A stretch of 55,277 nucleotides of DNA, the filler included, from Jimgerdemannia flammicorona (taxonomy: Eukaryota), in assembly GCA_003990765.1 (NCBI GenBank). It is 3 parts of 3 records of this genome, joined end to end, with 100 filler letters (N's around TTAATTAATTAA, not from the genome) between each part and the next. Parts side by side here need not be neighbours in the genome. Positions count along the whole stretch, not along the records: positions 18,462 to 36,820 come from RBNJ01002228.1; 2 more parts are not named here. One strand, written 5' to 3'. The stretch's first letter is position 1, and the number at the start of each line of letters is the position of its first letter. This document shows positions 12,166 through 45,373 of this stretch, one piece after another. The position numbers and the translations under genes were made by a program. The notes under the pieces were generated by a model that saw only the letters and a list, made by a program, of their open reading frames with translations, ran no database searches and was not told where the DNA came from.

Positions 12166-12196
<31 letters not shown>

Positions 12197-18225: not shown

Positions 18226-18361
18226 ATAATACTTATTTATTATTATATATAGTATTATTTTTCTAATAAAAAATATCAAAAATTTTAACTTACTTTTAGG
18301 ATCATTTTATCTTTTTCTAATATTTTACCAGTTCTTATCTGAAAATCTATTTTTTTTTTTT

Positions 18362-18461
18362 NNNNNNNNNNNNNNNNNNNNNNNNNNNNNNNNNNNNNNN
18401 NNNNNTTAATTAATTAANNNNNNNNNNNNNNNNNNNNNNNNNNNNNNNNNNNNNNNNNNNN
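18362..18461. other. Assembly gap with artificial TTAATTAATTAA linker
   Basis: N-run, linker, N-run; identical layout at 36821-36920. Confidence 0.97.
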
Positions 18462-18742
18462 CTCAACGTGTCCGCAAAGCTCCTCCCCTGCTTCCCTCCA
18501 GCCCCCCCACCAGTGCCACCTCCACTACCCAAGCCGCCCTGCCCACTCGAGCCACCGAAAGACCCCATCCCCAATCCATACCCCCTCCTGACAGTCTGCC
18601 AGTCGAAGGCCCCAGGTCCACCCGACCTAGTACGCGCATCGGCTTGCTTGCTGGTTGACATTGCCTTAGTATCTTTCTCCAATAAATGCTTCGAAAGTAT
18701 GTTGAAAAGTGTGTGTAACGTGAATTGTAGTGGAGAAAGATG
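18462..18742 (-). mobile_element. 5' end and ORF1 start of an L1/Tx1-like LINE abutting the leftmost Gypsy LTR
   Basis: 'RTRSGGPGAFDWQTVRRGYGLGMGSFGGS...SFAD' matches the ORF1 N-terminus at about 48930-49110. The terminus CATCTTTCTCCACTACAATTCACGTTACACA matches the ends at 45362 and 49205. Confidence 0.85.
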
Positions 18743-18745
18743 CTG

Positions 18746-19872
18746 CAGAATACCAGTGCTGGCATTATCCAGTGTTACATAAGAATACTGGTGCTGGCAT
18801 TATCTAGTGTAACAAAGAACTTAGAGCAGAAAGTTCAGGATCATGGGGACTTCATCATCATCATCACTGAAGGAGATGAGATCCACGAATTTGTTGTGTA
18901 GGTCGCACATTTTGCATATGTCATGCGGGATGACATCATCGCCGATGATGTCATCACATTTGACTGTGGCAGGGAAATCAGGAACAAGGTCTGGAGCTCT
19001 CCAGTCTATAAGGTTCTCTTCTATAAAATAAGGAACAAATGTGGGGTCTTGGGGAGATCTAACCCAGATACTTGGGCCTTGGAATACTGAGATCAATCCT
19101 TGTAGGAATTGGTCTGGGTTGTCCTGAAGGATGGGGTGCCAGAAGTCTTCTACTTCTTCACTGTTGAGGGTGATAGCGGACTGGGCTTCTGTAGCCACCC
19201 TGGCTTCTAGTGCTTTGATACGGTGGGATGATAGGTCGAAGTCTGAGACTCTAACATACTCCAAGTTGGGGATCGACCATGGTGCATGCCTGAAGATCTG
19301 ATGAATCTTTTTAGCTATCCTCATTTCACGTATATCCATGGAAGTGGCATCTTGTAGCTCTTGGGTGCTGGCCTGTGGGAACTCCCAGCAGAGGAGGTTT
19401 CCTATTTCATACTCCTGCCACATTTGGAGGCATTCAGTGGCAATGGTGATCCTTGTTTCCATTTCATGGTGGTAGAGGATAAAGTGATAGGGGTCTGCAG
19501 TACCCAGATTGATACTAGGAGTCCTTCTTGAGCAGGTCCTCATGGCTCTTCTGATGTCTTGGAATATCCTTTCTTCAACTGAGATACCTTGGTGGTTCCT
19601 TGACCTTGAGGTTTGGTGGGCAGCAGGCATTTTGTTTGTGGTAAGTCTTTGAGCTATTTTGGAATTGGTGGTTCTTGTTGGTTGCTGCTACTGCAGTTCC
19701 TTGATCCTTCTTTTATATTCTTCAGAATGCTTGTACTGTGGTCACAATAACTCACAGTTGGTCATCATTGCTCATCTCATATACTGTATGATCTTCTTGT
19801 GCTCTGATCTGGTGGCTTGCAAGAAAAGGCTGTCTCCTGTGCTGATGTCATTATTCTGGGGTCACCATTACA
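18746..19872 (-). repeat. Family-1 3' LTR (U3 part only; cut at the LINE 5' end)
   Basis: Starts TGTAAT immediately after PPT AGGAGGAAGA (19873-19882); colinear with the other two LTRs. Confidence 0.9.
18821..19630 (-). CDS. LTR(U3)-encoded ORF, 269 aa, unknown function (copy a)
   Basis: Uninterrupted ATG-to-stop frame inside the LTR; homologous to 32400-33203, 25205-26016 and 51867-52853. Confidence 0.8.
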   Translation of the reverse strand: MPAAHQTSRSRNHQGISVEERIFQDIRRAMRTCSRRTPSINLGTADPYHFILYHHEMETRITIATECLQMWQEYEIGNLLCWEFPQASTQELQDATSMDIREMRIAKKIHQIFRHAPWSIPNLEYVRVSDFDLSSHRIKALEARVATEAQSAITLNSEEVEDFWHPILQDNPDQFLQGLISVFQGPSIWVRSPQDPTFVPYFIEENLIDWRAPDLVPDFPATVKCDDIIGDDVIPHDICKMCDLHNKFVDLISFSDDDDEVPMILNFLL

Positions 19873-20185
19873 TCTTCCTCCTGAATAAGGATCTTCCTGA
19901 GCATCCTTATTCATTAGTCCAGTTCTGAAAAATTTGCTGATCTCATAACCTCTGGCAAGGGATCAAAAAGTGGTGTTTATGGGCTGGTATCTTTCCTTTG
20001 TATTTTGGCATGATGGTGAAGGGTCGCTCCCTTCATATAGAGCAAGAGCCTGATTCTGATCTTGACCAATCAGTTGATGGTTCGAACTCCTCTGACTTCG
20101 AAAGTCTCATGGATGAGTAGTTGCTAGTGCCATATCCCTTAGAGAATGGTCCAGACAGATAGCCTGCTGGTCATGGAACATGCTG

Positions 20186-23100
20186 TTACGATTCGCGGAC
20201 TAGAACCTCATGGGTGGTCATCACATTTTGCTTCTCTTGTATAGGTTCATGGTATTTCTTGAGTCTGTTCCTATGTACCATGGTAGGCAGTATGGTCCCT
20301 GAGATTTTTCTAAGCCAGTAGGTAGTTCCCTTGATATCTTGCATGTAGAAGGGTCCTTCCCATTTGGGCTCCAGTTTTCGCAACCATGAGGCTTCTACCA
20401 TATTTCAATACAGTAGAACCTTTTCTCCAATTCGGATGGGTTCTAGAGCCTTGTGATTCTTTTCCGCATTCTTTCTTATCAGTGCTTGTGACTTGGTGAT
20501 GTAATCTTCAGCCTTCTTCCTGATTTGGTGTAGTCTCTGGATTTCTGCATCAACCTGTCTCCAAGTTAGGTCTAGATTTGTGGCTGAGGTTCCATCAGAA
20601 TCTTCTTCTCCGAAGAGCAGCTCTCTTGGGGTAAAATGTGTGCTCTGTGACCATATGTCTCATAGGACAGAGAGGGCAGTTGGGAGATAGTTATCCCAAT
20701 TCTCATATATCTCTAAGATCTTCGCTAGGATGTTCTTGAGGATCTTGTTGGTTCTTTCTGTCTATCCATTTCCTTGAGGGTGGTATGCGGTGGTCTTGAT
20801 GTGCTGGATCTTATATTTCTGATATATTATCTCATGGAATCCATTGACAAATTCCATTCTGCAGTCTGTTGTGATTTGCTTTGGTGTCTTGTAGCGGCAG
20901 ATGATTTCTTAGTGCAGGAAGTCGGCTATAGAGAGGGCATTGGCTTCTTGTAATGCTCCTGCCTCTATCCATTTGGTAAAGAGGTCTACAATAACTATAA
21001 TATAGCGGTTTCCTGATAGTGTTACTGGTAGTGGTCCAATGATATCTATTGTGATGTGGTGGAAGGGGATAGGCTCAATTCTTGATGACCTGGGTGCCTT
21101 GTCTCACTGATCTTGTTTCTGTTTTTGGCACTTGTCACACCCTTTGACAAATTGGTGCAGGTCTTCTTCCATCTTGGGCCACCACATAGTTCTTCTTGCC
21201 TTGTCATATGTGTTGGTTCCTCCTAAGTGTCCTTCTTCATGTCCTTCCTTCATTACTTGATACTTCTTGTATTCGAGTATTACTAGCTTTCCTCCTTTTC
21301 TGAGTATAGTGTTGTCTAATTCAAACTGTTTCCAAGTCTGGTTGATGATGGTGATTGTCCAGGGTTCGAGGTGGTTGGGCATCTTCCGCTGCTCAAGGTA
21401 GCTGATTAATCCATAGTATAGCTCCTTATTCATATTGAATAGTCTTGATAGGGGTGTTTCGGGGTGTCCTCGAGAGTGCATCAGCATTGGTGTTGGTCTT
21501 TCCTGAGTGGTGCTTGACAGTACAGTCATACTCTTGTAGCCTATAGATCCATCTGGCATATATTCCTTTGGGGTTCAGAGTGTAGAATAGCTAGGTAAGA
21601 GCAGAATGGTCTGTTTGAATGGTGAAGTATTTCCCAGCTAGGTAGTAGTGGAACTTGTCTACTGCCCAGACTACTGCTAAGCATTCAAGCTTGCATGACT
21701 CGTAGTTCTGTTCTGCTCCACGGGTACCTTGGCTTGCATAGGAGATGACATATTCATGTCTGTCTTTCTTCTGAGCTAGGACTGCTCCAAGTCCTATAGC
21801 ACTCACATCTGTCTGCAGGATGAATTCTAGGTTCCAGTCTGGTCTTCTGAGGATGGGTGCTTGGGTCAACCTGGTCTTGAGTTCATTGAAGATTTCTTGG
21901 TGCTCCTTGGTTCATTCAAATTTGGTCTCCTTCTTCAGTAGCTCGTAGATAGGTGCTGCAATGTTGGAGTATCCTTTAATGAATCTTCTGTAGTAGCTGA
22001 CCAGTCCAAGGAAGGCGGACTGCTGTGGTTATTCTGGGTCTCAGGTAGGCTGCAACAGCCTCAATCTTCATGGGGTCTGTGTGGATTCTGGTCTGGTTGA
22101 TGAGGTGTCCTAGGTAGGCGATTTCTTGAGCTGCAAACTTGTATTTCTTGGGCTTGATGTAGAGGTCATGCTCCTTGATTTCGTGGATCAGCATCTGGCC
22201 AATCCTGTCATGCTTCTTGACTTTGAAGGGAGTGGTGTGGTTGTGATTTCTGACTATGAGAAAGATCTCGCCAGTGTAATCAGGGTCAATTACTCCTCCT
22301 TCAACTGAGATTTCGCTTTTGGCCAGACTGCTCTGGGTCTTGATGATTCTGGCATGGTTTTCTGGCAGCTTGACTCCAATTCCGGTGCCAAGTAGGGTTG
22401 TGGTCTGTGGTTCAAGGGTAGCATCTTGAATGCTGGCAAGGTCCATTCCTATGGCTCCTTCAGTCTTGTATTCTGGGATCTTGGCTTCAGGGTGAAACTT
22501 CTTGACCTTGAGGGTGATGTCTGATTCTTGTTCCTCCTCATCATCACTGTCAGCTTGAAGCTCTGGGGGCTGGTCATCTTCTTCAGCTTTCCTTTTTGCT
22601 TCGGTAGCTTCTTGCTCATGTTTCTGTTGGTGGATTTTCCTGACTTCACTGATACAGGACCAGCAGTCATTCAGGTGTTCAGAGCAGTACCTTCTAGTAC
22701 CATGGGGGCATCTTCCTTGAGGGGCATAGCCATTGATGATCTTGTTGTACCACTGCTCATCTGTGAGCTTGGGTGTCTTGTTCTTATTCTTGTTCACCAA
22801 GTGCATGAAGACCTCTGTGTCTTCTTCATCTCCTTCCTCCATGTCTGGTAGGACTCCTTTGTGGATATTAATATTGACTCGTACCTTTCTTCCTCTGTAG
22901 TTGATCTGCATCTTCTGGGCATTGAGGTCAATGATGGCCTTGGCCTTGTGAAGCCATTGGTTGCCAATGAGGATGTCATAGTTAGTGGCGCTTGTAACAA
23001 TCACATCTACTGAGATGGTGGCTCCTCCTATCTTGATGGGGACTTCTCGGATTTTGCCAAGGGGGGTAGCTCGTATACCATCTGCTGTGACATAGACCAT

Positions 23101-24606
23101 CTTGGTGGACTCTTCAATGTCCCAACCTAGGCAGTCAATTGCCTTCTTACTCATGAGGCATTCTCTAGTACCAGTATCAATGATGGCATCAAAGATACAG
23201 TCTTTGATCTGGCAGGGGGTATAGGCTGATGTCTTGTGCTGGTCTTCGGATTCTTCACCTGAGTTCTCGTATTCTTCCTGTGCATTGTGAGCTTCTACAA
23301 TCTTGTACTCTTGATTCTTGGCAGTAGTTGCAAGTCCTACTCTCAACTGCTGTCTGAAGGCAGGGACTTCAGCTAGCTATCCAAAAGTGGCATTGACCTT
23401 CTATTCCTTGAGGTCCTTGTAGATGTCATACTGGTGAATCTTGGTCTTGCGCAGCTTCTATTCCTTCTTGCTTTCGCTTTCTCCTGAGACTGGAGTAGTG
23501 CCTTCTATGATTTGGCAGGCAGCTTCATCTAACTCCATATCTTGATCAATCTCCTCAGGTTGAGTCTTGCTTTGAATAGTGACAGCTGGGGTCTTCTTTG
23601 GTCTTCCAACTAGCTTGCTATTGCTCTTCTTGTCATAGGGCTTGGACCGGGTTCTGGTACCTTCAGTAGCAGGGTAGAATTTGAGCTCTTCATAGTATTC
23701 TTCATCATCAGTGTCACCAATCTCCTCGATGACTACTGCATTGGTTTGTTCTCTGGTTCTGCTAGCATTGCTTGGTTGGGCTTTGCGTCTTGTTTTGGTC
23801 ATGCAACTCTTTGCATAGTAGCCTTCTTCTCCACATCTGAAGCATGTGATATTGCATTCTTCTGTAGCAGCTGCAAATCTCTGCACTGGTCTCCTGTTAG
23901 TGCTTCGGACTTCTCTAACAACATCACCAAGGTGTGCAGTCATCTTGGCGAACTGCTTGGTGAGTTCTTTCACTGGATCAGCTTTGGCTATCTTGGGGGT
24001 AGGTGGGGTTGGTTGTCTGTTTACAACTGTGGCAGATAAGATACTAGTTGGCTTTGATGGCTCCATCTTGATGCCAGTTATTTTCTCCATTGAGTGTTCG
24101 GCAGGGTGTCTAGCAGTCCAATATCTCTGTGCAAAGTCCACTTTCTGATCAAGGGTCAGTGCAGTTGGGGTAGACCAGATTGCTAGGGCAATTTCAGGGT
24201 GAACTCCTTTGAGAAAGGTTGAATCCGCTATTTGTTCCTTGAGGCAGTCATCATAGCCAGCCAAGACAATCTGGCAGCAAATTCAGATATAGAATGAGTT
24301 GAGATCTTCACTAAGTCTCTGGCAGATAGTATTGAGTTGATCCTTGAGAGCTTGCTTGATCTCTTCGGTATAATATATTGTTCTGAGAAAGACCTTCATG
24401 TTGGCAAGTTTGGCTGCACTAGCATCAGCAATGGTGGCTGCATTGAACTTGTCTCTGGCAGGTCCTCTAAGGCTGACTGGTAGAAGGGCCAATTGAGCAT
24501 CCACACCAAGGGCTCATATGGTGGCGAATTGTTCAAAGTCTTCAATGAAGGTCAGGATTGACTCTTCAGTAGTATATCTATAGAATGTGGGGGGACACAT
24601 TTCCAT
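20186..24606 (-). pseudogene. gag-pol polyprotein, unit 1 (stops; 843-bp internal deletion)
   Basis: Gag with degenerate zinc knuckle, PR 'AIIDTG', dUTPase, RT C-terminus, RNase H 'FILQTD.S..GLGAVL', integrase with GPF motif. Gag and PR-dUTPase segments share one frame. Confidence 0.93.
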
Positions 24607-24706
24607 CTTGTCTTGAATTCTTGCAGAGGTGACTCTTGTAGCCAGGGTAGTTATTGTGGAGGTTGTTCATTTTTCAGCTTGAAAGTAAGAGATTCGTCTT
24701 GAATCA

Positions 24707-24723
24707 CCAGCCAATGGGCACCA
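24707..24723 (-). promoter_or_regulatory. Primer-binding site (unit 1); second copy at 31944-31960
   Basis: TGGTGCCCATTGGCTGG starts 3 nt after the LTR end ...CATGACA; TGG is complementary to tRNA CCA. Cognate tRNA not identified. Confidence 0.8.
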
Positions 24724-24726
24724 AGT

Positions 24727-26258
24727 TGTCATGTAGTGGTCGCTGAGTCCTTCAAATACGCCAGATTCTCTTCAAGGTGTATCTCTTAGACTAACTCAAG
24801 TTTGTTATAAGCAAGTTCTTATTGGAGTGCCTTCCCAAGGTCTTATAGTCCTCAAACTTCTTATCTTTAACTGTCTTGTTATCTCTTAGATTGCTTGCAA
24901 GAAAGTGTGTATATTGCACTGAGAAGACTGACTTTATTTCAGAGGAAATAAGAGGGGTATTTATACAAAATATAATTCAATAGTTGCTAAGATATGAAGC
25001 TAAATATAAATTCCAATAACTAAAACTACCAAGTTCTAGGGCTGGCATTGATGGTTGTACAGGTTCAGGATGCTGGCATTATTTAGTATCACATCAAAAT
25101 GCCGGTGCTGGAACAATTTCGTGTCACCTCAGAATACCAGTACTGGCATTATCCAGTGTTATATAAGAATACTGGTGCTGGTATTATCTAGTGTAACAAA
25201 GAACTTAGAGCAGAAAGTTCAGGATCATGGGGGCTTCATCATCATCATCACTGAAGGAGATGAGATCTGCGAATTCGTCATATAGGTCACATGTTTCGCA
25301 TATGTCAATGGGATGACATCATCGCCAATGATGTCATCACATTTGGCTGTGGTGGGGAAATCAGGAACAAGGTCTGGAGCTCTCCAGTCTATGAGGTTCT
25401 CTTCCACAAAATAAGGAACAAATGTGGGGTCTTGGGGAGATCTAACCCAGATGCTTGGGCCTTGGAATACTGAGATCAATCCTTGTAGGAATTGATCTAG
25501 GTTGTCCTGGAGGATAGGGTGCCAGAAGTCTTCTACTTCTTCGCTGTTGAGGGTGATAGTGGACTGGGCTTCTGTAGCCACCCTGGCTTCTAGTGTATTG
25601 ATATGGTGAGATGATAGGTCTCTGAAATCTGAGACTCTAATATACTCCAAGTTGGGGATCAACCATAGTACATACCTCAAGATCTGATGAATCTTCTTAG
25701 CTGTCCTTGTTTTGCATATATCCATGGGAGTGGCATCTTGTAGCTCTTGGGTACTGGCCTGTGGAAACTCCTGGCAGAGAAGGTTTCCTATTTCATACTC
25801 CTGCCACATTTGGAGGCATTTGGTAGCAATGGTGATCCTTGTTTCCATTTCACGGCGGTAGAGGATAAAGTAATAAGAGTCTGCAGTACCCAGGTTGACA
25901 CTAGGAGTCCTTCTTGAGCAGGTCCTCATGGCTCTTCTGATGTCTTGGAACATCCTTTCCTCGACCAAGATACCTTGGTAATTCCTTGACCTTGAGGTTT
26001 GGCAGACAGCAGGTATTTTGTTTGTGGTAAGTCTTTGAGCTATTTTGGGATTGATGGTTCTTGTTGGTTGCTGCTACTGTGGCTCCTTGATCCTTCTTTT
26101 ATATTCTTCAGGATGCTTATGCTGTGGTCACAATGACTCACAGTTGGTCATCATTGCTCATCTTATATGCTGTATGATCTTTTTGTACTCTGATCTGGTG
26201 ACTTGTAAGGAAAGGCTGTCTCCTGTGCTGATGTCATCATTCTGGGGTCACTGTTACA
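24727..26258 (-). repeat. Family-1 shared central LTR (1532 bp)
   Basis: TGTAAC...ATGACA termini; PPT at 26259-26268 and PBS at 24707-24723. TATA-like GTATAAATA at 24958-24966, AATAAA at 24933-24938, GCTGGCATT repeats at about 25040-25195. Confidence 0.93.
25205..26016 (-). pseudogene. LTR(U3)-encoded ORF copy b (ATG>ATA; frameshift near 25305)
   Basis: ORF-track 25225-25968 matches copies a and c until 'DDVIP', then shifts frame. Confidence 0.8.
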
Positions 26259-26571
26259 TCTTCCTCCTGAATAAGGGTCTTCCTGAGCATCCTTATTCAT
26301 TGGTCCAGTCCTGAAAAATTTGCTGATCCCATAACCTTGGGCAAGGGGTTGAAAACTGGTGTTTATGGGCTGGTGTCTTCCCTTTGCATTTTGGTGTGAT
26401 GGTGAAGGGTCACTCCCTTCATATAGAGCAAGGGCCTGATTCTGATCTTGACCAATCAGTGGATGGTTCAAACTCCTCTGACTGTGAAAGTCTCACGGAT
26501 GAGTAGTTGCCAGTGCTGTATCCCTTAGAGAATGGTCCAGACAGATAGCCTGCTGGTCACAGGACATGCTG

Positions 26572-29500
26572 TTATGATTCATAGACTAGAACCTCATGGG
26601 TGGTCATCACGTTTTGCTTCTCTTATATAGGTTTATAGTACTTCTTGAGTCTGTTCCTATGTACCGTGGTAGGCAGTATGGTCCCTGAGATTTTTCTAAG
26701 CCAGAAGGTAGTTCCCTTGATATCTTGCACATAGAAGGGTCCTTCTCATTTGGGCTCCAGTTTTCGTGACCATGAGGCTTCTACCATGTTTCAATACAGT
26801 AGAACCTTTTCTCCAAATCGAATGGGTTCTAGGGCCTTGTGATTCTTTTCCACATTCTTCCTTGTCAGTACTTGTAACTTGGTGATGTAATCTTCAGCCT
26901 TCTTTCTGATTTGGTATAGTCTCTGGATTTCTGCATCAACCTGTCTCCAAGTTAGGTCTAGATTTGTGACTGAGGTTTCATTAGAATCTTCTTCTCTGAA
27001 GAGCAGCTCTCTTGGGGTAAAATGTGTGCTCTGTGACTATATATCTCGTAGAACAGAGAGGGCAGTTGGGAGATAGTTATCCCAATTCTCATATGTCTCT
27101 GAGATCTTCGCTAGGATGTTCTTGAGGGTGTTGTTGGTTCTCTCTGTCTGTCCATTTCCTTGAGGGTGGTATGCAGTGGTCTTGATGTGCTGGATCTTGT
27201 ATTTCTGGTATATTATCTCGTGGAATCTATTGACAAATTCTGTGCCGCAGTCTGTTGTTATTTGCTTTGGTGTCTTGTAGCGGCAGATGATTTCTCAGTG
27301 TAGGAAATTAGCTATAGAGAGGGCATTGGCTTCTTGTAATACTCCTGCCTCTATCCATTTGGTGAAGAGGTCTACAATAACTATAATATAGTAGTTTCCT
27401 GATAGTGTTACTGGTAGTGGTCCAATGATATCTATTGCGATGTGGTGGAAGGGGATAGGCTCAATTCTTGATGATCCGGGTGCCTGGTCTTGCTGATCTT
27501 GTTTCTGTTTTTGGCACTTGTCACACCCTTTGACAAATTGGTACAGGTCTTCTTCTATCTTGGGCCACCACATAGTTCTTCTTGCCTTATTGTATGTGTT
27601 GGTTCCTCCTAAGTATCCTTGCTTGCATACTTCCTTCATTACTTGATACTTCTTGTGTTCAGGTATTACTAGCTTTTCTCCTTTTCTAAGTATAGTGTTG
27701 TCTAATTCAAACTGTTTCCAAGTCTGGTTGATGATGGTGATTGTCCAGGGTTCAAGGTGGTTGGGCATCTTCTGCTGCCCAAGGTAGCTGATTAATCCAT
27801 AGTATAGCTCCTTATTCATATTGAATAGTCTTGATGGGGATGTTTTGGGGTGTCCTTGAGAGTGCATCGGCATTGGTGTTGGTCTTTCCTGAGCAGTGCT
27901 TGACAGTACAGTCATACTCTTGCAGCCTGTAGATCCATCTGGTATATATTCCTTTGGAGTTCAGAGTGTGGAATAGCCAGGCAAGAGTGGAATGGTCTGT
28001 TTGAATGGTGAAGTGTTTTCCAGCTAGGTAGTAGTGGAACTTGTCTACTGCCCAAACTACTGCTAAGCATTTAAGATTACATGACTCATAGTTCTGTTCC
28101 GCTCTGTGGGTACCTCAGCTTGCATAGAAGATGAAATATTCATGTCCATCTTTCTTCTGAGCTAGGACCACTCCAAGTCCTATAGTACTCGCGTCTGTCT
28201 GCAGGATGAATTCTAGGTTCCAGTCTGGTCTTCTGAGGATGAGTGCTTGGGTCAACCTGATCTTGAGTTCATTGAAGGTTTCTTGGTACTCCTTGGTCCA
28301 TTTGAATTTGGTCTCCTTCTTCAGTAGCTCATAGATAGGTGCTGCAATGTTGGAGTATCCTTTGGTGAATCTTCTGTAGTAGCTGGACATTCCAAGGAAG
28401 GCATGGACTTCTGTAGTTATTCTGGGTCTTGGGTAGGCTGCAACAGCCTCGATCTTCATGGGGTCTGTATGGATTCCGGTCTGGTTGATGAGGTGTCCTA
28501 GGTAGGCGATTTCTTGAGCTGCAAACTTGCATTTCTTGGGCTTGATGTAGAGGCCATGCTCCTTGAGCCTCTTGAGGGCTAGCTGTATATGATTGACATG
28601 TTCCCATGCAGTGTTGCTGAAGATGATCACATCATCAATATAGACAAAGAGCCATTTTCCAATCTCGTTTCTGAAGACTCTGTTCATCATTCACTGGAAA
28701 CTTGCTAGGGTATTGCACATTCCAAATGGCATTCGCAGATAGATATAGGTGGCATCAGGTGTGATGAAGGCTGATCTCTCACTAGCATCTTGAGTGAGAC
28801 CAATCTGATGGAAGTCTGAGAACAGATCCAAGGTGGTGTAGTATTTGGCTTCGCTTCCAAGAGTGATAAGGATTTCTTGAATATTTGGCAAGGGCTGCCT
28901 ATCCTTCTTGGTGATGGCATTGAGTTTCCTGTAGTCAATGCAGAGTCTTGGTGCAAACTCTCCAGGCTTGCTTCCTTTCTTTGGGGCAAGGACAATGGGT
29001 GAGACCCAGGAGCTGATAGCTTGCTTGATGATTCCAGCTTCTTCTATTTCCTTGAGTTCGGCTCGCAGCTACTCTCTGTAGACAGGTGGTATGGGTCTGG
29101 CTTTCTGGTAGATAGGCTTGGTATCACCAGTGTCAACTTCGTGGTAGTACTTGGGTTCTTGATTATGGATATCCCTAAAGTCTGTAGCAAGTACTCCTTC
29201 ATTCTGGTACAGGATCTTGAGAAGTTGTTCCTCCAGGGGAAAGTTTTCTCCAATGGTATATGTGTGCTTGTTCTGATCCTTATCTTTCTTGTGCTCAAGT
29301 TCAGTAATCTTAGTGGTAGCATAGGCTCCTCTTCCAGTAGATCCAAAGCCTTGTTCTCCTCTCTTGATCTTGATAAGTTCAGTGGCCTCTATGATCTTGG
29401 GCTTCTTGATTTCGTGGATCAGCATCTGGCCAATCCTGTCATGCTTCTTAACTTCGAAGAGAGTGGTGTGGTTGTGATTTCTGACTATGAGAAAAATCTC

Positions 29501-31843
29501 ACCAGTGTAATCAGAGTCAATTAATCCTCCTTCAACTGAGATTTCACTTTTGGCCAGACTGCTCCTGGTCTTGATAATTCCAGCATGGTTTTCTGGCAAC
29601 TTGACTCCAATTCCAGTGCCAAGTAGGGTGGTGGTCTGTGGTTCGAGGGTAGTATCTTGGATGCTGGCAAGGTCCATTCCTATGGCTCCTTCAGTCTTGT
29701 ATTCTGGGATCTTGGCTTCAGGGTGAAACTTCTTGACCTTGAGGGTGATGTCTGATTCTTGTTCCTCCTCATTGTGACTGTCAGCTTGAAGCTCTGGGGG
29801 CTGGTCATCTTCTTCAGCTTTCTTTTTTGCTTCGGCAGCTTCTTGCTCATGTTTCTGTTGGTGGATTTTCCTGACTTCGCTGATACAGGACCAGCAGTCA
29901 TTCAGGTGTTCAGAGCAGTACATTCTAGCACCATGGGGGCATCTTCCTTGAGGGGCATATCCATCAATAATCTTGTTATACCACTGCTCATCTGTGAGCT
30001 TGGGTGTCTTATTCTTGTTCTTGTTCTTGTTCACCGAGTACATGAAGACCTCTGTGTCTTCTTCATCTCCTTCCTCCATGTCTGGCAGAACTCCTTTGTG
30101 GACATTGATAGAAACTTGTACCTTTCTTCCTCTGTAGTTGATCTGCATCTTCTGGGCATTGAGGTCAATGATGGCCTTGGTCTTGTGAAGCCATTGGTTG
30201 CCAATGAGGATATCATAGTTGGTGGCACTTGTAACAATCACATCTACTGGGATGGTAGCTCCTCCTATCTTGATGGGGACTTCTTGGATTTTGCCAAGGG
30301 GGGTAGCTCATGTACCGTCTGCTGTAACATAGACCATCTTGGTGGACTCTTCAATGTCCCAATCTAGGCAGTCAATTGCCTTCTTGCTCATGAGGCATCC
30401 TCTGGCACCAGTATCAATGATGGCATCAAAGATACAGTCTTCAATCTGGCAGGGGGTATAGGCTGATTTCTGGCACTAGTCTTTGGATTCTTTACCTGAG
30501 TTCTCAGATTCTACTTGTGTATTGTGAGCTTCTACAATCTTGTACTCTTGATTCTTGACAGTAGTTGCAAGTCCTACTCTCAACTGCTGTCTAAAGGCAG
30601 GGACTTCAGCTAGCTGCCCAAAAGTGGCATTGACCTTCTGCTCCTTGAGTTCCTTGTAGATGTCATACTGGTAGATCTTCATCTTACGCAGCTTCTGTTC
30701 CTTCTTACTCTCACTTTCTCCTGAGACTGGAGTAGTGCCTTTGATAATTTGGCAGACAGCTTCATCTAACTCCATGTCTTGATCAATCTCCTTGTGTTGG
30801 GTCTTGCTTTGAATAGTGACAGCTGGAGTCTTTTTTGGTCTTCCAACTGGCTTGCTGTTGCCCTTCTTGTCATAGGGCTTGGACTGGGTTCTGGTACCTT
30901 CAGTAGCAGGGTAGAATTCGAGCTCCTCATAGTATTCTTCATCATCAGTGTCACCGATCTCCTCAATGACTACTGCATTGGTTTATTCTCTGATTCTGCT
31001 AGCATTGCTTGGTTGGGCTTTGCATCTTGTTTCGGTCATGCAGCTCTTTGCATAGTGGCCTTCTTCTCCACATCTGAAGCATGTGATATTGCATTCTTCT
31101 GTAGCAGCTACAAATATCTGCACTGGTCTCCTGTTGGTGCTTCGGACTTCTCTAACAACATCACCAAGGTGTGCAGTCATCTCGGTGAACTGCTTGGCAA
31201 GTTCTTCCACTGAGTCAGCTTTGGCTATCTTGGGGGTAGGTGGGGTTGGTTGTCTGTTTACAACTGTGGCAGGTAAGATACTAGTTGGCTTTGATGGCTC
31301 CATCTTTATGCCAGTTATTTTCTCCATTGAGTGTTCAGCAGGGTGTCTGGCAGTCCAATATCTCTGTGCAAAGACCACTTTCTGATCAAGGGTCAGTACA
31401 GCTGGGGTAGACTGAATTGCTAGGACAATTTCAGAGTGAACTCCTTTGAGGAAGGTTGAATCTGCTATTTGTTCCTTGAGGGCATCATCATAGCCAGCCA
31501 AGACAATCTGGTAATAGATTTGGGTATAGAATGAGTTGGAATCTTCATTAAGTCCCTGGCAGATAGTATTGAGTTGATCCTTGAGAGCTTGCTTGATCTC
31601 TTCAGTATAATATGTTGTTCTGAGGAAGGTCTTCATATTGGCAAGTTTGACTGCATCTGCACCAGCAATAGTGGCTACATTAAACTTATTTCTGGCAGGT
31701 CCTCTGAGGCAGACTGGTAGAAGGTCCAATTGAGCATCCACACCAAGGGCTCGTATGGCAGCGAATTGTTCAAAGTCTTCAATGAAGGTCAGGATTGACT
31801 CTTCAGTAGTATATCCATAGAATGTGGGGGGATGCATTTCCAT
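26572..31843 (-). pseudogene. gag-pol polyprotein, unit 2 (full domain set, disrupted)
   Basis: CFRCGEEGHYAKSC zinc knuckle, PR, dUTPase, RT (LCIDYRKLN, MPFG, YIDD), RNase H (LQTDAS), IN (H-H-CxxC, IAIDIIGPLP, GPF). Confidence 0.95.
29328..29749 (-). other. Trimeric dUTPase domain within pol, between protease and RT (truncated second copy 22174-22518)
   Basis: Motifs GAIGMDL, TRSSLA, GGLIDSDYTGEI, DRIGQML and RGEQGFGSTG. Confidence 0.95.
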
Positions 31844-31963
31844 CTTATCTTGAATTCTTGCAGGGGTGACTCTTGTAGTCAGGGTAGTTGTTGTGGGGGT
31901 TGTTCATTTTTCAGCTTAAAAGTGAGAGATTCATCTTGAATCACCAGCCAATGAGCACCAAGT

Positions 31964-33445
31964 TGTCATGTAGTGGTCACTGAGTTCTTCAAATATGCCA
32001 GATTCTCTTCAAGGTGTATCTCTTAGACTAACTCAAGTTTGTTATAAGCAAGTTCTTATTGGAGTACCTTCCCAAGGTCTTATAGTCCTCAAACTTCTTA
32101 TCTTTAACTGTCTTGTTATCTCTTAGATTGCTTGTAAGGAAGTGTGTGTATTGTACTGAGAAGACTGACTTTATTTCAGAAGAAATAAGAGGGATATTTA
32201 TACAAAATATAATTCAATGGTTGCTAAGATACAAAGCTAAATATAAATTCCAATAGCTAAAACTACTAAGTTCCAAGGCTGGCATTATTTAGTGTCACAT
32301 CAAAATACCAATTTCGCATTACCTCAGAATGCTGGTGCTGGCATTATTCAGTATTATATAAGAATACCAGTGCTGGCATTATCTAGTGTAACAAAGAACT
32401 TAGAGCAGAAAGTTCAGGATTATGGGGGCTTCATCATCATCATCACTGAAGGAGATGAGATCCACGAATTTGTCGTTTTTGCGTGCTTTGATGTCACGTG
32501 GGATGACATCATCAATGATGTCATCACATTCGGCTGTGGCAGGAAAATTGGAGACAAGGTCTGGATCTCTCCAGTCTATGAGGTTCTCTTCCACAAAATA
32601 AGGAACAAATGTGGGGTCTTGGGGAGATCTAATCTGGATGCTTGGGCCTTGGAATACTGAGATCAATTCTTGCAGAAATTGATCTGGGTTGTCCTGGAGG
32701 ATAGGGTGCCAGAAGTCTTCTACTTCTTCACTGTTGAGGGTGATAGTGGACTGGGCTTCTGTAGCCACCCTGGCTTCTAGTGTATTGATATGGTGGAATG
32801 ATAGGTCTCTGAAATCTGAGACTCTAATATACTCCAAGTTGGGGATCGACCATGGTGTATGCCTGAAGATCTGATGAATCTTCTTAGCTGTCCTTGTTTC
32901 GCATATATCCATGGGAGTGGCATCTTGTAGCTCTTGGGTGCTGGCCTGTGGGAACTCCCGGTAGAGGAGATTTCCTATTTCATACTTCTGCCACATTTGG
33001 AGGCATTCGGTAGCAATGGTGATCCTTGTTTCCATTTCACGGTGGTAGAGGATAAAGTGATAAGGGTCTGCAGTACCCAGGTTGACACTAGGAGTCCTTC
33101 TTGAGTGGGTCCTCATGGCTCTTCTGATGTCTGGGAACATCCTTTCCTCGACTGAGATACCTTGGTGATTCCTTGACCTTGAGGTTTGGCAGGCAGCAGG
33201 CATTTTGTTTGTGGTAAGTCTTTGAGCTATTTTGGGATTGGTGGTTCTTATTGGTTGCTACTACTACAGTTCCTTGATCCTTCTTTTATATTCTTCAGGA
33301 TGCTTGTGCTGTGGTCACAATGACTCACAGTTGGTCATCATTGCTCATCTCATATACCATATGATCTTTTTGTACTCCAATCTGGTGGCTTATAAGGAAA
33401 GGCTATCTCCTGTGCTGATGTCATCATTCTGGGGTCACCATTACA
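31964..33445 (-). repeat. Family-1 5' LTR (1482 bp)
   Basis: Homology with the other units ends exactly at 33445 (...CCATTACA), the base that abuts the PPT in the other copies. GTATAAATA at 32195-32203; AATAAA at 32170-32175. Confidence 0.93.
32400..33203 (-). CDS. LTR(U3)-encoded ORF, 267 aa, unknown function (copy c)
   Basis: Uninterrupted frame inside the 5' LTR. Confidence 0.8.
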   Translation of the reverse strand: MPAACQTSRSRNHQGISVEERMFPDIRRAMRTHSRRTPSVNLGTADPYHFILYHREMETRITIATECLQMWQKYEIGNLLYREFPQASTQELQDATPMDICETRTAKKIHQIFRHTPWSIPNLEYIRVSDFRDLSFHHINTLEARVATEAQSTITLNSEEVEDFWHPILQDNPDQFLQELISVFQGPSIQIRSPQDPTFVPYFVEENLIDWRDPDLVSNFPATAECDDIIDDVIPRDIKARKNDKFVDLISFSDDDDEAPIILNFLL

Positions 33446-36400
33446 ATATATATACATATATCTCTTTGTTACTATAGACTATAATATTTTTATGAAAAAG
33501 AGATTCTTGCCTATATTTAGAGTATATAGTTTATATATTTAAAATATATAACAGTGGGCTTTATAATATTTCTATAGAGATATATCTCTACATTTTCTTT
33601 TCTTAAGTATATAATATATTATTATTATCTAGTTTGATAGATATAAGATATTCAAAAAACTTATATAGAGAGAATTATTTTCTATATACTGTTATAGACT
33701 ATATAGCTCTTGAATCTATGAGCTAGACTTTATTATTATCAGCTATATTGGTATATTTGATGAGCATAAGGTAGATATTACTACTTTTTATTAATTCAAA
33801 AGTTTTTTGCTAACTAGTTATAGATATCAGATTAGTGATAGAACTAATTGTAGATCTTGTGCTTGCAGAACTAGTAGAGCTTACAATAGATGACAGATTG
33901 GTGGATTTGATAGTAAACTATTATATATATATATTGCTTAAATAAACAATATATTAATATTATTGTCAGTTTCAATAGTATTTATATTATTATACTTCTT
34001 TTTGTCATATCTATACTGGCCTTCTATATTTGATTTTATCTTCTCTTTTCTTTGATAGTAATTATTCTATATATATCCATACTTACTATAGTAATGATAA
34101 TTACTATCAAACTTAGCTAAATTATAATTTTGTCTTTACCAATTTTATTCTTACTAGTATTTCTTACAATATTTGTACAATCTGTAGAATGGTCTTTTGT
34201 TATCATCAGAAATATTTCCTTAGTATATTTTTTCATTAATGAGACTCATTATTATATAAGCATAGTTTATAAGCTTGTCACCCTCATATATAGCTATAAT
34301 GATAACATTATATACTTCTGAGAGACCTCTTATAAATACTGCAATTTTGTCTTTATCTTTTGTGTAATCTATGAATATACTATAAGAATTCTCCTAATTC
34401 ACTAAATTATTGATACAATCAGTATATATACTTACAGATATTCTTCTTATTATTAGGCTTTATTTGTAGATTAAATAACTGAGATTTTAGATAAAATTAA
34501 TTTAATATAGATACTTATATATAATGATTAAATATATCTTCTCATTCCATATGAGCTATTATAGTATACATTATATGCTTTATTTATAAGTTTGACAATA
34601 TATATATAATCTTATGTAATACTAAGTTATTTTTTGTAGTATTATAATCTAGAATTTATACTTATAGTTTCATATACTCTATTAAGCTATATTTATCAAA
34701 AAGATTCATTATATGGAATATCTAAATAGTATAATCTTTTCTATCAAAGATTGGGATAGATCTCTTAGCTGAACTTATAAAATAGAAACTGTGTTTTCTA
34801 TTATAATATCTATATCAGTAGCTATATTATATATTGTAATATACTGGCTCAATAGAGACAAATTAAAAGATTGAGAGTTAATATAATTTGGGTAAAGCCC
34901 CTAGTTACTTTATTAAAAAGCAATAAAATATTCTAAAATTCCTGGTATCCTTATTGGTATTTAGTAGTATAATGGTCAAGTCTAGATATAATGGTTAAAT
35001 TCCTTATTAGAAATGGTTCTTAGATATGAGTAGTAATTTATATGATTTTCTTCTTGAGTAGCAGATAATCTTGATATAATATGGTGAATTTGGTGAGATT
35101 TCTTAATAAGTAGATTGGTTGATAACTTGGTTTGGCACTAATTCTTTTATGTTAGTAGACTTCTCAAATAATTTAGATAATAGATAACTTGATAACTTAG
35201 ATATAGATAACTCAATAACTTGGATAGTACAGATTTTCCTAGCAAAGTTACATTAAAGACTGGCTTTATTTGTATGAGGTCATGTTATGGGGTAAGCGTC
35301 ACTATGAAGTTGCATTAGATAGACTAGCTTTATATTGGAGAATATAGGTGGGCTTTTTCTAAATAGCAGGGATTTTTGAGCAAAGTTGCATCAAAGACTA
35401 ACTTTATTTGTATAAACTATATTCACTATAAGGTTGTATTGAATAGACTGACTTTTGGCAAGATAGACTTTACTTGAAAATAGTAACTTTTTTCTTAAGT
35501 AGTGGATCACTCAAATTATAGTAAAGTTCTTTACTCAAACTTAGTAGATTTCGTAGGAAAATATATGACAGATTTCTCTTCTAAATTAGTCTGGCAAGTT
35601 TACCAATCAATCTTTAAATTGAAAAGTAGACTGAAGCCAAAAATGTGTTTGGAATTTTAGACTGTGATTTATTCACTCTTGTCTCTAGAATATTTTATAT
35701 AAGTTAGTTGCTATATAGTTACTGTATAGCTAACTATAGAATGTTATTTATAGCAGGTGTTCAGTGTTCTGGTCTAATACAGTATATTGGTCTGGTACAG
35801 TATACTTGTTCAGTACATATGCTGATCTAGTATAGATAAATATACCCTATCTAGTATTTCTGACTAATTATATAAGTTAGTATAGTAAAGCAGTCTTGAT
35901 TGTCTAGTATACTTATTATGATATATAGCTATTTTATAATTCAGATACTATGATATCTACTGCTCATTATATCAGCCTCTACTAAAGAATGTTCAGCTCT
36001 GGACTATCCTTTAGTCATCATTTCAATATTTATAAGTATTTTTAGTATTAATATCTGAACTATTATCTTTATTTATATCTAAGTCACTTTATTCTATAAG
36101 CTCTTCTTCTTCTGGGAACAGGATTTTGATATAATTAATAATTCTTAAGTAGGTGACTAGACTTATTTCTTATATATTATATTTATAAAGAGAACTGTGT
36201 CTGCATTAATGCTGTAATATTTTATTTATAAAGTATATATAATCAGTCTGCAGCAATGGGGTTTTTCTGTCAGGTCCATGGTGATTCTAATATAGATCTA
36301 CTTGGGAGCTGAGAGCTTCTACAACTATTTATCAATTACATTGTAGACTATAGTTAGTAGACTTATAGAAAGTTTCTGGTCAAGATGATATTCTATTAAT

Positions 36401-36820
36401 AAATTTGAATTTACAGACAGGAGTTTCCATTGGCTTGGCAGAATTGAGATAGAGAAACTGGGAGTGATTGGAATGAACTAACAACAAGGGTCTGGAGACA
36501 TTGGCCAATCCTTTGGTTTATATTATAGAAAGAGATATAGTTTCAGTCAATTAATATATACTAGAGTCCTCAGAGAATATCAATATATACTTCTTATATA
36601 GATGCTTATTCTTTAGATATTGTATACAAGATAAGATCCTTCTCATTTGGGTTTCAGTTTAGTGGCAAGTTATTTCAATTATACTTCTCTAAACTAGTAC
36701 TTGATCTCCAATCTTGATCTTCTGATCTATCTGTTTCTAATTATAGTACTTCTTTTAACTATCTTGGGCCTTGATGATCTGGGCTTAGGCTTGATTATAT
36801 TTTTTTTTTTTTTTTTTTTT

Positions 36821-36920
36821 NNNNNNNNNNNNNNNNNNNNNNNNNNNNNNNNNNNNNNNNNNNNTTAATTAATTAANNNNNNNNNNNNNNNNNNNNNNNN
36901 NNNNNNNNNNNNNNNNNNNN
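36821..36920. other. Assembly gap with artificial linker, poly-T on both sides
   Basis: N-runs around TTAATTAATTAA. Confidence 0.97.
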
Positions 36921-39900
36921 TTTTTTTATAGTCACTTGGACTCCGCCTTTATTACCAGTCTATGAATAAGTATACAACATTACCACCCCCTATCCAATCC
37001 CCATAGGGGGGCCCCTCTCCACCTCCTTCCGAATAAAAACCACCCTTTCACCAACTACTCTAACTCTCCCCCCACTCTGCCCACAAATTTTCTCCACTAA
37101 GTGGCACCTCCGACCACCCTGCAGCCCCCAACCCAGCCACCAGCCTGTTAAGGTGTCTTCCATAAGCCTATGCTACTGCAACAACCAGTCTCCCAAGCTC
37201 TGTCTCCTCCCATCCTCAAAAACAAATAGCCAATGACTGGCCAGCCCCACCCAAATAGCCAAAGCCCAACCCAAAGTAAGCCACTCCTTCCCTATCCCTC
37301 CTACCAATCTATCCCTCAAGTCCTCCCACCTCTCCTGTACTTCATCTCTCCGATGCTGTACCCCCAAACATTCCCCAATTGCCCACCAAAAATCCCCCAA
37401 CACCTCACACTCTCCTAGCCAATATTCAGGTGTCTGTACAAAACCCCCCTCCTGCTCTACATTATGGCACTCCTCACAGTTAAAGCAACCCCCTATGACA
37501 AGGTGCCCCAAGCGAAAGTTGAGCATAACATTTCTCTGCAGCATGTGCCACCAGACCACCCAGTACTTTGGTGGCATCCACTTTCTTACTGCAGCACTCT
37601 AGGTCCAAACACTATACCAATTCCACTCTTCACCAATTCCAACACCTTGCCACCCACTAGGCCACAGATCCTGGCCTGGTCCCCTTTGGCATTCCATTCC
37701 ATCTCCAATGTCGAACTCAATTAAAGGGGCACCACCCAGCAGTATATGATCCCATCTCCACATAGCCGGGTCCTAGTCCTCCTCTCCTTCATTCCCCTGC
37801 CAATGAATACCAATACGGTGTACCCCTTCTGCAATCCCCCACCAAAATCCTTTATATCACAGTTGTTCAGTGTTCTGAAGTCCAACCAATGAGAGGAGAT
37901 CACCAGTTGAGCCCCTTGGTGATAACTGCCTCTCCCAGATCTTCTGTAGCAGAGGAACCCACCCACCTCCTCTCAATTCCACTGCCCTCTTTAGCCACCA
38001 TGCTCTCAAGCAGTGTAACCATTTAGGAAAATCAACCAGCCCAAGACCACCTTGTGCCACTGATAGGGACAAGGTCTCTCAGCCAATCTGACTCCGCCTG
38101 CCAGCCCAAATCCATCCCTTTGCCGACTTCATCAATCTCTTCACCACCCAAGCTGGGAAGTCCAGATGATATGCCAGGTACCATAGCTTTGGCAGCCAAT
38201 GGACATTCAAAATCGAGACCTGCTCTGCCAGAGAAAATTGTCTTTCCCCCCAACTCTGCAGGGCCTCCTCCCAGATTCCAATCCTCTGCTCTCACCAAAG
38301 CCTAGGCAGAACTGACCCATATACTGACAAATATATGCCTAAATACCACACTGCTTCACCAGTAGGGACGATTGTTCCTATCACTTCCCCTCCTACCAGA
38401 CCATTGCCTAGCATTATTATTTCACACTTATGCCAATTCAGCTTAGCTTCAGAGTTCTCCTCATACCACTTGACAGTCTTCTTGAGCTCTTCCACATCAG
38501 CAATCGACCCCAAACCCACCACCATGTCATCTGCAAAGGCCCCAACTTTCCATCCAATGCCAAAGACAGAGAGCCCCGCTATCCTCCTGAATTCTGTCCA
38601 TCAGAGGTTCCAGGGAGAGAGCATACAAAATAGGGGACAGTGGATCCCCCTGGGGCACCCCCCTTCCCAGGGGGAACACTACCCCTCTATGTCCATTACA
38701 CATGAGTGCAGCCCTACTCCCTTCCAGTAGGCTGACCATTGCTGACCGGAATTGGTGTGGAACCCCCATTCTATCCAAAACCTTCACCAGCCAGACTCTT
38801 CACACCCAGTTGTATACCTTCTCCTGGTCCAAGAATACTAGATGCCCATCCAGTCCACAGACCCTTGCCCCTTCGATAATGCCATGTACCCAGGCAGTAC
38901 CATCCCTGATGAGCCAACCACCCACAAATCCCCTCTGCTCAACACCCACGACTTGCTGGGCCACCTTCTGTAGTCATGCCACCACCACCTTAGTCACCAA
39001 CTTCCTGTCCATATCTAGCAACATTATCGGCCGCCAGTTCTTCCAATCCTCCTGCCTTCCTTTGTTTTTATAAAGCAGCATCACCAGCCCAAGGTCCTGC
39101 TCCCCCACCCACCTCCCTGTCTGTAGAATCAGGTCACACAATGCCATCATCTCTCCCATTACCCCTGGGACTCCAACCATTCACTTCCAAAAATCCCAGG
39201 GCAGACCATCCTCCCTAGGTGCCATACCTGATGTTGTTGCAGCAAGAACCTAGTGGATCTCATCCTCCTGAACAGGCATCACCAGGTCACCTAGCCCCTT
39301 GACTTGTGGTGGGTGCCAATCCTCCAATGTTTGTTCAATGGTAGTGGTATCTGCCCCACCCTCTTCCTCACTCCACAATCCACTCTATCTCTCCTTCAGC
39401 AATCCAAGAATGTCCTGCACCCCATGCACCAGTCTACCATCTGAGTCCAGCACCCCTTCCCATCATTGCTGTACCTGCCTCACCCTAAGGGCCCTTATAA
39501 GGTACTTGGAAGGCCTCTCTCCTTCCTCTAGATCCTGCCAGCGAAGCTGTGCTGCCAAGCTCTGGACCCTTGCCTCTTCCTCTTCCCACAGCACCTGTTG
39601 AAGTTCTCCAACCTCCATTTTCACCCTCATTAACCTCTAATCGCCTTCTTCCTCCAACATCTTCAGCCTTGCCCACTCCTCCAGGAGCCACATCAATCTA
39701 GTAGAGGCCCACCACACTCTTCGCCTTCACTGCTTCCCTGCCTCCTTGCCTGCCTCACTCCAGTAAATCTTGGCCATCTCCTTCATCCTCATCCACCGAG
39801 TCCCAACTGAGGCCCCTTCTTGCCACTAGTTCTCCACCCTCAGCTGAATGTCTTTAGTCCACTCATCCCACTGGGTCTTGTCATCTAATAAAGAGGAATT

Positions 39901-45362: not shown

Positions 45363-45373
45363 CTCTTGAGGAT

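Follow-up and report, generated by a model that had tools for sequence, protein, structure and literature searches.

A conserved accessory gene that appears to reside inside the long terminal repeats of a Ty3/Gypsy element of Jimgerdemannia flammicorona

The long terminal repeats (LTRs) of a Ty3/Gypsy retrotransposon in the Jimgerdemannia flammicorona genome, referred to here as e1, appear to carry a protein-encoding gene of their own. That a conserved accessory gene resides in the LTR is a well-supported conclusion. Our fuller reading, to which we give a probability of about 0.62, is that e1 belongs to a dUTPase-bearing Ty3/Gypsy lineage whose long LTRs (1.5-2.6 kb) contain an accessory gene located in the unique 3' (U3) region and forming its own transcription unit. 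The window, that is, the whole stretch of DNA that was analysed, has 55,277 bases and consists of three contigs joined by linkers (N44-TTAATTAATTAA-N44) at positions 18362-18461 and 36821-36920. The linkers have stops in all six frames, and features are not readable across these points. The main locus is the middle contig, 18462-36820.

The e1 array was mapped by blastn of positions 17001-35000 against the window and by a three-way alignment, which place it on the minus strand in the order LTR-internal-LTR-internal-LTR, with the last LTR truncated. Read in this direction, the array opens with the 5' LTR of copy B (31964-33445; 1482 nucleotides (nt), TGTAAT...ATGACA), followed by the internal region of copy B (26259-31963), a middle LTR common to copies B and A (24727-26258; 1532 nt, TGTAAC...ATGACA), the internal region of copy A (19873-24726) and a third LTR (18746-19872), which another repeat truncates at LTR position 1127. 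The pairwise identity of the LTR copies is 90.9-92.1% by blastn. Two of the three LTRs contain an intact gene, also on the minus strand, encoding proteins of 267 amino acids (P0001, 32400-33203) and 269 amino acids (P0002, 18821-19630). The copy in the middle LTR has an ATG to ATA change (26016-26014) and a 1-nt deletion near the C-terminus. An open frame of 267 codons is far beyond chance. In LTR coordinates, the gene runs from its ATG at 243 to the end of its stop codon at 1046 of 1482 nt and is thus wholly within the LTR, and the copy that opens the array and those that follow a polypurine tract (PPT) are alike in this respect. Because the gene is located between the LTR start and the primer binding site (PBS) and gag, each LTR carries one copy.

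The left edge of the LTR block is the identical base in all three copies of the three-way alignment. The first copy is preceded by an AT-rich flank and the other two by the PPT AGGAGGAAGA, which occupies 26259-26268 in copy B. Logan contigs of four soil-metagenome runs were placed on 26259-34500, and in all four runs position 33445 is joined directly to 26259 (two contigs in X1, one in X2, two in X5 and one in X4, the shorter side of the X4 contig being 177 letters). These contigs imply that other copies of the family share the PPT-LTR junction. Runs with near-identical pieces are labelled soil metagenome, except X5, and X1 has 1066 pieces at 99% at least; among the 19 runs listed there is none of RNA. 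Contig depth over 31759-33408 is about two to three times that of the internal region in most bins, and there is almost no contig cover past 33683; contig depth cannot rank the parts, and neither observation was used.

At the other end of the block, the LTR termini (TGTAAT/TGTAAC...ATGACA) form an inverted repeat at five of six bases, and a PBS-like stretch (31940-31963, minus strand, ACT TGGTGCTCATTGG...) comes directly after the LTR end, with TGGTGC(T/C)CATTGG beginning 3 nt past it. The window has no tRNA genes, and a test for LTR self-priming of the Tf1 type returned a single 9-mer complement. The gene is not in the env-type position between pol and the 3' LTR, since it is located after the PPT-LTR junction; nor is it in the internal region, where an ORF0-type or additional open reading frame (aORF) would be found, as the repeated block that contains it has the PPT junction at one end and the PBS-like site at the other. 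An earlier sequence-only reading of this DNA had placed the open reading frame (ORF) entirely within the LTR in sense orientation, with two of three copies intact, and all of this is borne out by the coordinates given above and by the layout of the second element described below. It had also fixed both LTR ends. The left edge at TGTAA stands, with the flank break at 33445 and the joins in four of four runs behind it, and the right-hand end and the PBS are placed by motif. That reading had named a short LTR, lacking the frame, in other copies as grounds against it; the copies seen in the metagenome contigs join the PPT to the same LTR start.

The internal ORFs of e1 were scanned against Pfam and contain, in order on the minus strand, zf-CCHC, RVP_2/Asp_protease, dUTPase, RVT_1, RT_RNaseH_2, Integrase_H2C2 and rve, so that copy B encodes gag (CCHC), protease (PR), dUTPase, reverse transcriptase (RT), RNase H and integrase (IN). 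The dUTPase domain (PF00692, E 6.5e-29) sits between RVP_2 and RVT_1 in copy B and is present in copy A too; protein P0024, 91% identical, carries both PF00692 and PF00078. No chromodomain was seen in the e1 ORFs scanned. The element is of the Gypsy type (Ty3/Gypsy, Metaviridae), with the dUTPase between PR and RT. In copy A, the 834 nt of RT that correspond to 28567-29400 of copy B are missing, and at the junction (22170-22178) the two blastn segments have 9 nt in common. The array thus joins an RT-deleted copy and a full-length copy via a shared LTR.

A second element, e2, appears to repeat the e1 layout in a 2.6-kb 3' LTR at the far end of the window, also on the minus strand. Its putative 3' LTR (50467-53060, 2594 nt) was delimited by eye as AAGAGGCAGA, then TGTGATG...CACCACA, then an AT-rich flank, and its ends are an inverted repeat at six of seven bases. 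The homologue of the LTR gene (51867-52835) has 322 codons from stop to stop; the ATG occupies 52853-52851, and codon 6 is a TGA in place of the Arg of the relatives. This frame has no Pfam match, and against the family profile it gave an hhalign probability of 100 (E 1e-43). A TATTTAA box is about 60 nt 5' of the ATG. Tandem repeats (51621-51827, 82 nt x 2.5) lie between the stop codon and a TATA box with AATAAA module (51445-51476), in which TATAAATA is the TATA box and which reads TTTGTATAAATAACCCT-(17 nt)-GAATAAAACCTCAGTCAG. The 3' part of e2 pol, encoding RNase H and integrase (53400-55277, with rve at 53998-54273), continues beyond the window, and the 5' LTR of e2 is outside it. The two elements are colinear by tblastx; identity is 42-50% for the RNase H and IN segments and 30-35% for segments of the LTR gene (25-35% when hhalign is also considered), and the distance from the end of pol to the gene is 656 nt in e2 and 715 nt in e1. 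Since both elements carry the gene and their pol segments are just 42-50% identical, the gene family must be old. The putative U5 part of e2 (50972-51435) has a 176-nt unit repeated 2.7 times, and within each unit is a GGATTCAAGACC-like stretch reminiscent of what immediately follows the e1 PBS-like site.

One alternative is that the true LTR is shorter than 240 nt and that the frame is an internal ORF0 preceding gag, as in rice Retrosat2, within a head-to-tail array of three. In an LTR-internal-LTR-internal-LTR array no part is unique, and the repeats by themselves therefore do not fix the right-hand end of the LTR; ORF0-type genes 5' of gag do exist in plants (PMC3485330). Against this, the block has no AATAAA until position 1271, a PBS-like TGG stretch was not seen 5' of the frame, and the PBS-like stretch and gag begin only past position 1482. 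In addition, the e2 homologue is placed between integrase and the element end that adjoins the AT-rich flank; it is followed by an end that matches as an inverted repeat and by the flank, with no gag following. We consider this alternative very improbable.

The LTR gene belongs to a small family. A word-indexed search found six proteins at E<=0.001 among 173 candidates, phmmer over 1.84 billion representatives found six matches, five of them credible, and a profile search found 12 matches among 3970 candidates. The phmmer match P0013, a repetitive protein of 920 amino acids, was dropped as spurious. Together there are about a dozen homologues, 27-88% identical to P0001, and all of them are gene calls from JGI or ENA metagenomes, lie on contigs of 540-4848 nt and are named 'hypothetical protein' at most. 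Masking of repeats before gene calling hides LTR genes, which may be why the family shows only in metagenome calls. Full-length relatives of 271-342 amino acids share an MP(A/P) start, a basic N-terminus and an acidic tail with DLISF-like and LNF-like motifs, and the conserved blocks of the family include W.EYEIGH, AKK.HQ.F.H.PW.IP.L.Y and W.P.L.DNPDQ.L..L...F.GP.I. A scan of metagenome DNA gave three loci (L001, L002 and L003) out of 15 pattern matches. L003 is spurious, being a phage-like RecA/helicase region. The relatives with DNA are L001, 61% identical, and L002, 39% identical; further copies were found in none of seven genome contigs and none of 24 viral contigs.

The ratio of amino-acid-changing to silent substitution rates (dN/dS) of the two intact window copies (c5 and c3) against L001 is 0.18-0.39 by NG86, LWL85, YN00 and maximum likelihood; against L002, dS is saturated. 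The gene evolves faster than pol, yet it is under purifying selection between lineages. These observations support the view that the LTR frame represents a genuine gene family with a conserved coding sequence.

Some of the non-coding sequence around the gene is conserved as well. A TATA-like box is present 60-87 nt 5' of the ATG in four of four lineages (e1, e2, L001 and L002), and so is a C/A-rich leader (TACCACA.A..ATGCC). In e1 this box, TATA1 (TATAAAAG, 33283-33290, minus strand; TATAAA at LTR position 156), is a candidate promoter of the LTR gene, and bZIP-like sites (TGACATCA and TGAGTCA) are found 5' of it, within the first 160 nt of the LTR. TATA1 lies 87 nt 5' of the ATG and was left unused in the sequence-only reading. 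Between the stop codon and a second TATA box, TATA2, are short repeats with the core AATGCCAGCAC (32290-32399, minus strand), whose copy number differs among the LTRs and which in the third LTR have a 35-nt period, repeated 2.1 times. Tandem repeats occur just 5' of the TATA2 module in both e1 and e2. The module itself (32170-32202, minus strand) consists of TATA2 (TATAAATA; TATAAA at 1244), 18 nt and AATAAA, the only one in the LTR (1271), so that the second TATA box is 27 nt 5' of AATAAA; it may be a core promoter with a poly(A) signal or a two-part poly(A) signal. The arrangement TGTATAAATA-(17-18 nt)-(G)AATAAA-..TCAGTC recurs in e1, e2 and L001, which are all of the lineages readable at this point; the L002 contig ends 284 nt past the stop codon. 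The conservation of such short non-coding pieces where the proteins are 25-60% identical argues that they function.

We predict that each LTR is a small transcription unit that runs from TATA1 (156) through the ATG (243) and the stop codon (1046) to AATAAA (1271). TATA1 would drive a monocistronic mRNA of about 1.1 kb, terminated by the LTR poly(A) signal, and TATA2, fed by the upstream repeats, would drive the genomic RNA, which would start at or just past AATAAA. With such a start, the poly(A) signal would act in the 3' LTR only, and with TATA2 as the genomic-RNA promoter, the gene would be in U3. We infer this U3 placement from the two motifs, TATA2 (1244) and AATAAA (1271). The LTR would then be divided into a U3 of about 1270 nt, a short R and a U5 of about 190 nt; a long U3 with a short R and U5 is an arrangement like that of mouse mammary tumour virus (MMTV). 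The protein would act in trans for the family, either by activating the downstream LTR promoter via the repeats or by countering host silencing.

Fold and family comparisons are informative mainly for what the protein does not resemble. No transmembrane (TM) segment was found, the maximum 19-residue Kyte-Doolittle mean being 0.62-1.07 in all six members tested. A type II TM glycoprotein homologous to Sag is not indicated by the hydropathy, and there is no Pfam family for any of the three window copies. Overall the protein is acidic, with 50 N-terminal residues that are basic in five of the six members (P0010 has a net charge of 0 there) and 55 C-terminal residues of net charge -5 to -14 in the six. 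AlphaFold predicts a helical core at residues 47-150, with a predicted local distance difference test (pLDDT) score of 70-94, and a disordered tail. The only Pfam hit at E<=1, ATG5_HBR, appeared in three of 15 members (best E 0.056) and was taken as noise. There were no matches at E<=10 among PDB sequences; Foldseek on the predicted model gave a best E of 0.62 in PDB and 0.28 in BFVD, VIA-align against 48,161 chains gave a best Z of 4.8 and none at 5 or above, and the best ESM Atlas score was 0.81, under the useful range. Nor is the family gag-like, as the element's own gag compared with it gave an hhalign probability of 0.2. The earlier claim that the product is not env-like and lacks a signal peptide or TM segment is consistent with the hydropathy of these members and with the position of the gene after the PPT-LTR junction. 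That reading had also named a dN/dS of about 1, or a match to a described LTR-element domain or a host gene, as signs that it was wrong. The values between lineages are below 1, and Pfam, hhalign and Foldseek matched neither kind of sequence. The least certain of our conclusions is that the product is a nuclear regulator or adaptor, i.e. an activator of the LTR promoter or a silencing antagonist; we favour this because of the charge layout, the tail motifs and the repeats that adjoin TATA2.

Several points weigh against the reading presented here. A fungal poly(A) signal could account for TATA2 and AATAAA as its UA-rich and A-rich parts, and the gene would then be in R. The right-hand LTR end (31964/24727) and the PBS rest on motifs, namely an inverted repeat at five of six bases and a PBS-like stretch that starts with TGG. 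No target site duplication can be read, as the third LTR breaks off at 18746 and the contig then runs out, and the e2 LTR ends were read by eye. In the L002 lineage the gene might be internal, with the LTR boundary elsewhere: a PPT-like GGAGGGAGGA (1252-1270) and then TGTAAT come directly 3' of the stop codon of the gene, and a 33-nt motif flanks the gene on either side (170-202 and 1481-1513, 82% identical). The L002 contig, with 1535 nt, is too short to settle these boundary motifs; when its upstream part was aligned with e1 and e2, the first 50 nt fell in the pre-PPT region of e2, with no clear junction. The protein models are mediocre (mean pLDDT 59.1, and 61.5 for a second model from a 20-row alignment), and fold and family matching gives no functional handle. 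Finally, the window copies show little constraint. The dN/dS between the two intact copies is 0.43-0.88, the ratio of amino-acid-changing to silent codons is 38:22, as compared with about 1.9:1 expected without selection, and the identity of the frame (0.916) is no better than that of the non-coding LTR (0.921-0.929).

The first of these points leads to an alternative in which the gene is in R and TATA1 is the sole promoter, with transcripts that end at the LTR poly(A) signal or read through as genomic RNA. It predicts either a 1.1-kb mRNA or a genomic RNA with the gene at both ends, in which it would be the first ORF before gag. TATA1 together with the bZIP-like sites in the first 160 nt resembles a full promoter and is kept in four of four lineages. 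Poly(A) signals of yeast and other fungi have two parts, a UA-rich and an A-rich element, and TATAAATA followed by AATAAA fits such a signal. However, an R of 1.1 kb with efficient polyadenylation would stop most transcripts in the 5' LTR and would leave gag as a downstream cistron, and the tandem repeats directly 5' of TATA2 in two diverged elements resemble U3 enhancers. We think it rather unlikely that the gene is in R, and we continue to prefer a location in U3.

The near-neutral differences among the window copies raise another possibility, namely that the frame derives from a recent capture of a host gene or is a relic in decay that is of no use to the element. One of the three e1 copies and the e2 copy are disabled, which would agree with such a view. 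On the other side are the dN/dS between lineages, the failure of phmmer to find any homologue outside LTR-like contexts among its 1.84 billion representatives, and the occurrence of the gene in elements as diverged as e1 and e2. Any capture must be ancient, since the gene is shared by elements whose pol is 42-50% identical. Of the explanations discussed here, this is the one that we would credit least.

The state of the copies themselves is more complicated. The singleton differences among the three LTRs comprise 130 transitions and four transversions (97% transitions); the C>T changes are mostly at CpA (27), CpC (19) and CpG (7), and 21 G>A changes are at TpG. The same transition bias is present in the four metagenome runs, e.g. 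X1 has 634 transition places and 45 transversion places. The intact gene copies show 72 differences, with 38 amino-acid-changing codons, 22 silent codons and no stops. With the observed spectrum, 5.3-6.1% of mutations in the frame would make stops, so that about four would be expected among 72 (Poisson P ~0.02). The four gaps between these two copies are all 3 nt long, and they sit in a GAT-rich stretch that is possibly prone to 3-nt slips. None of the three gene copies has a stop, as compared with at least 14 and at least 15 disabling events in the gag-pol regions of the same array. By a least-cost frame path, copy B has 14 (12 stops and two frameshifts) and copy A has 15 (10 and five), counts in which the natural gag terminus and the stretch beyond pol are included. 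At the gag-pol density, about five to seven disabling events are expected in 2.4 kb, and one frameshift was observed (P ~0.02-0.05). These counts imply that amino acid change has been nearly free and that the frame has been kept better than that of pol. Possible explanations are that much of the divergence dates from active lineages, that residual selection is at work, or that the frame has been retained by luck. Because the window copies differ almost neutrally, they are probably dead or dying.

Base composition differs across the window. The G+C content is about 0.44 within e1 and 0.22-0.32 in its flanks. The observed/expected CpG ratio is 1.05 in the gene-bearing region 9500-15500, 0.13-0.26 in three retroelement stretches and 0-0.19 in AT-rich blocks, where TpA/ApT is above 1. 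This CpG pattern suggests element-targeted cytosine methylation or deamination and, like the transition bias, points to a host that is probably a fungus. The unrelated sequence that interrupts the third LTR in the three-way alignment (18462-18745) continues to the contig end and is probably the terminus of another repeat family that inserted into e1. It resembles, by eye and in opposite orientation, a loose end in run X5 that abuts 28052 (23 of 27 bases).

The remaining features of the window lie outside e1. A non-LTR element resembling a long interspersed nuclear element occupies 37000-49000 on the minus strand, with Exo_endo_phos at 40187-40675 and RVT_1 at 42171-43349; its GC skew is -0.35 to -0.51 across 12 kb and its observed/expected CpG is 0.13. 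Two host genes are represented on the plus strand of the first contig, that for the mitochondrial ribosomal protein mS33 by an ORF (10780-11136; PF08293, E 5e-29) and that for an AMP-binding enzyme by an exon-like piece (12508-12939; PF00501, E 3.6e-13). The Atlas clusters closest to the mS33 ORF are of Ascomycota, Chordata and Ascomycota (0.96-0.97), no more than a lead to the host taxon. A degraded protease-like piece (8926-9258), in or at the edge of an AT-rich block, is 74% identical to e1 22999-23180, and an inverted pair of AT-rich repeats (3657-4119 and 17075-17535) is 71% identical.

LTRs are usually regarded as non-coding regulatory DNA, and a gene resident in the LTR alters how such elements should be annotated. 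Solo LTRs would have to be counted as potential genes, and fungal or invertebrate Gypsy elements would gain a feature of 'complex retroviruses'. The system is compact, with two TATA boxes, repeats and one small protein, and could be used to study the self-regulation of a retrotransposon or its evasion of genome defence. If the protein is a silencing antagonist or activator, the conserved motifs in its tail would point to a host partner. A bolder version, which we put forward tentatively and with the odds somewhat against it, is that each LTR, solo LTRs included, is a self-contained gene for a fast-evolving trans-acting factor, with its own promoter at the 5' edge of the LTR and the poly(A) signal of the LTR. 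The factor would act through the U3 repeats to switch on the adjacent promoter of the genomic RNA, or it would block host silencing. The gene would be doubled at each insertion and would outlive gag-pol, and dead elements and solo LTRs would supply the factor to live ones. If this is true, there would be a foamy-virus-like two-promoter circuit outside the vertebrates, with a protein of a new fold.

An LTR-resident gene in a non-vertebrate LTR retrotransposon was not found in the full-text literature, a scope that leaves aside subscription journals and supplements, and an older description of such a gene may exist. Literature on the 'LTR ORF', in the portions covered, mainly concerns MMTV sag; in PMC12037069 and PMC6673714 the term means ORFs of LTR elements and not ORFs in LTRs. 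A dUTPase between PR and RT also occurs in PosPlaTy3-5 of Postia placenta, in Phanerochaete elements and in Tuber Tmt1 (PMC2864245). Unlike e1, in which no chromodomain was seen, and e2, whose frame as judged by eye ends shortly past the integrase, these are described there as chromodomain elements, and the passages of that paper that treat them report no LTR gene.

Accessory genes are known from several other LTR elements. In rice, Retrosat2, RIRE3 and RIRE8 have an ORF0 located 5' of gag, with a Ka of 0.26 as compared with 0.08 for ORF1 (PMC3485330, in part). Plant aORFs are internal, located either 5' of gag or after pol and ahead of the 3' LTR, and none is inside an LTR in the sections of the review PMC7264820 that were covered. 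Like these, the e1 gene is a lineage-specific extra gene that evolves faster than pol in an element with long LTRs; unlike them, it is inside the LTR. In Caenorhabditis elegans, the CERV gene of Cer1 is in the env position, is expressed from a spliced mRNA and is needed for export of the genomic RNA (PMC10309623, in part), and the Juno, Vesta and TelKA elements of bdelloid rotifers have ORF3s, a dUTPase between PR and RT and no chromodomain, according to the part of PMC5408684 covered. As a dUTPase in this place occurs both in basidiomycete and Tuber elements and in rotifer families, the domain does not settle the host. CERV and the rotifer ORF3s resemble the LTR gene in being non-env accessory genes after pol in Gypsy-like elements and differ from it in being internal, and neither phmmer nor the profile search found any similarity between them and the LTR gene family.

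The closest parallels in position come from vertebrate retroviruses. As in MMTV sag, e1 has a complete sense ORF of about 300 codons in a long LTR (>1.2 kb), 5' of the core promoter as placed here by motifs. Sag, a type II membrane glycoprotein, comes from a vertebrate retrovirus, whereas the e1 protein has no TM segment and no likeness in sequence or fold to anything in the databases compared, belongs to a non-enveloped Gypsy element and has an apparent TATA box of its own. The nef gene of human immunodeficiency virus and the bel genes of foamy viruses start in the internal region and overlap U3; they merely overlap it, unlike the e1 gene, and have no homology to it. In foamy viruses, Tas/Bel1 is expressed from a separate internal promoter and activates the LTR promoter. 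The e1 gene, if it encodes the accessory regulator that we propose, would likewise be encoded at the 3' end or in U3, and by this analogy, activation of the LTR promoter by a factor made from a separate promoter, as in foamy viruses, is the most likely mechanism.

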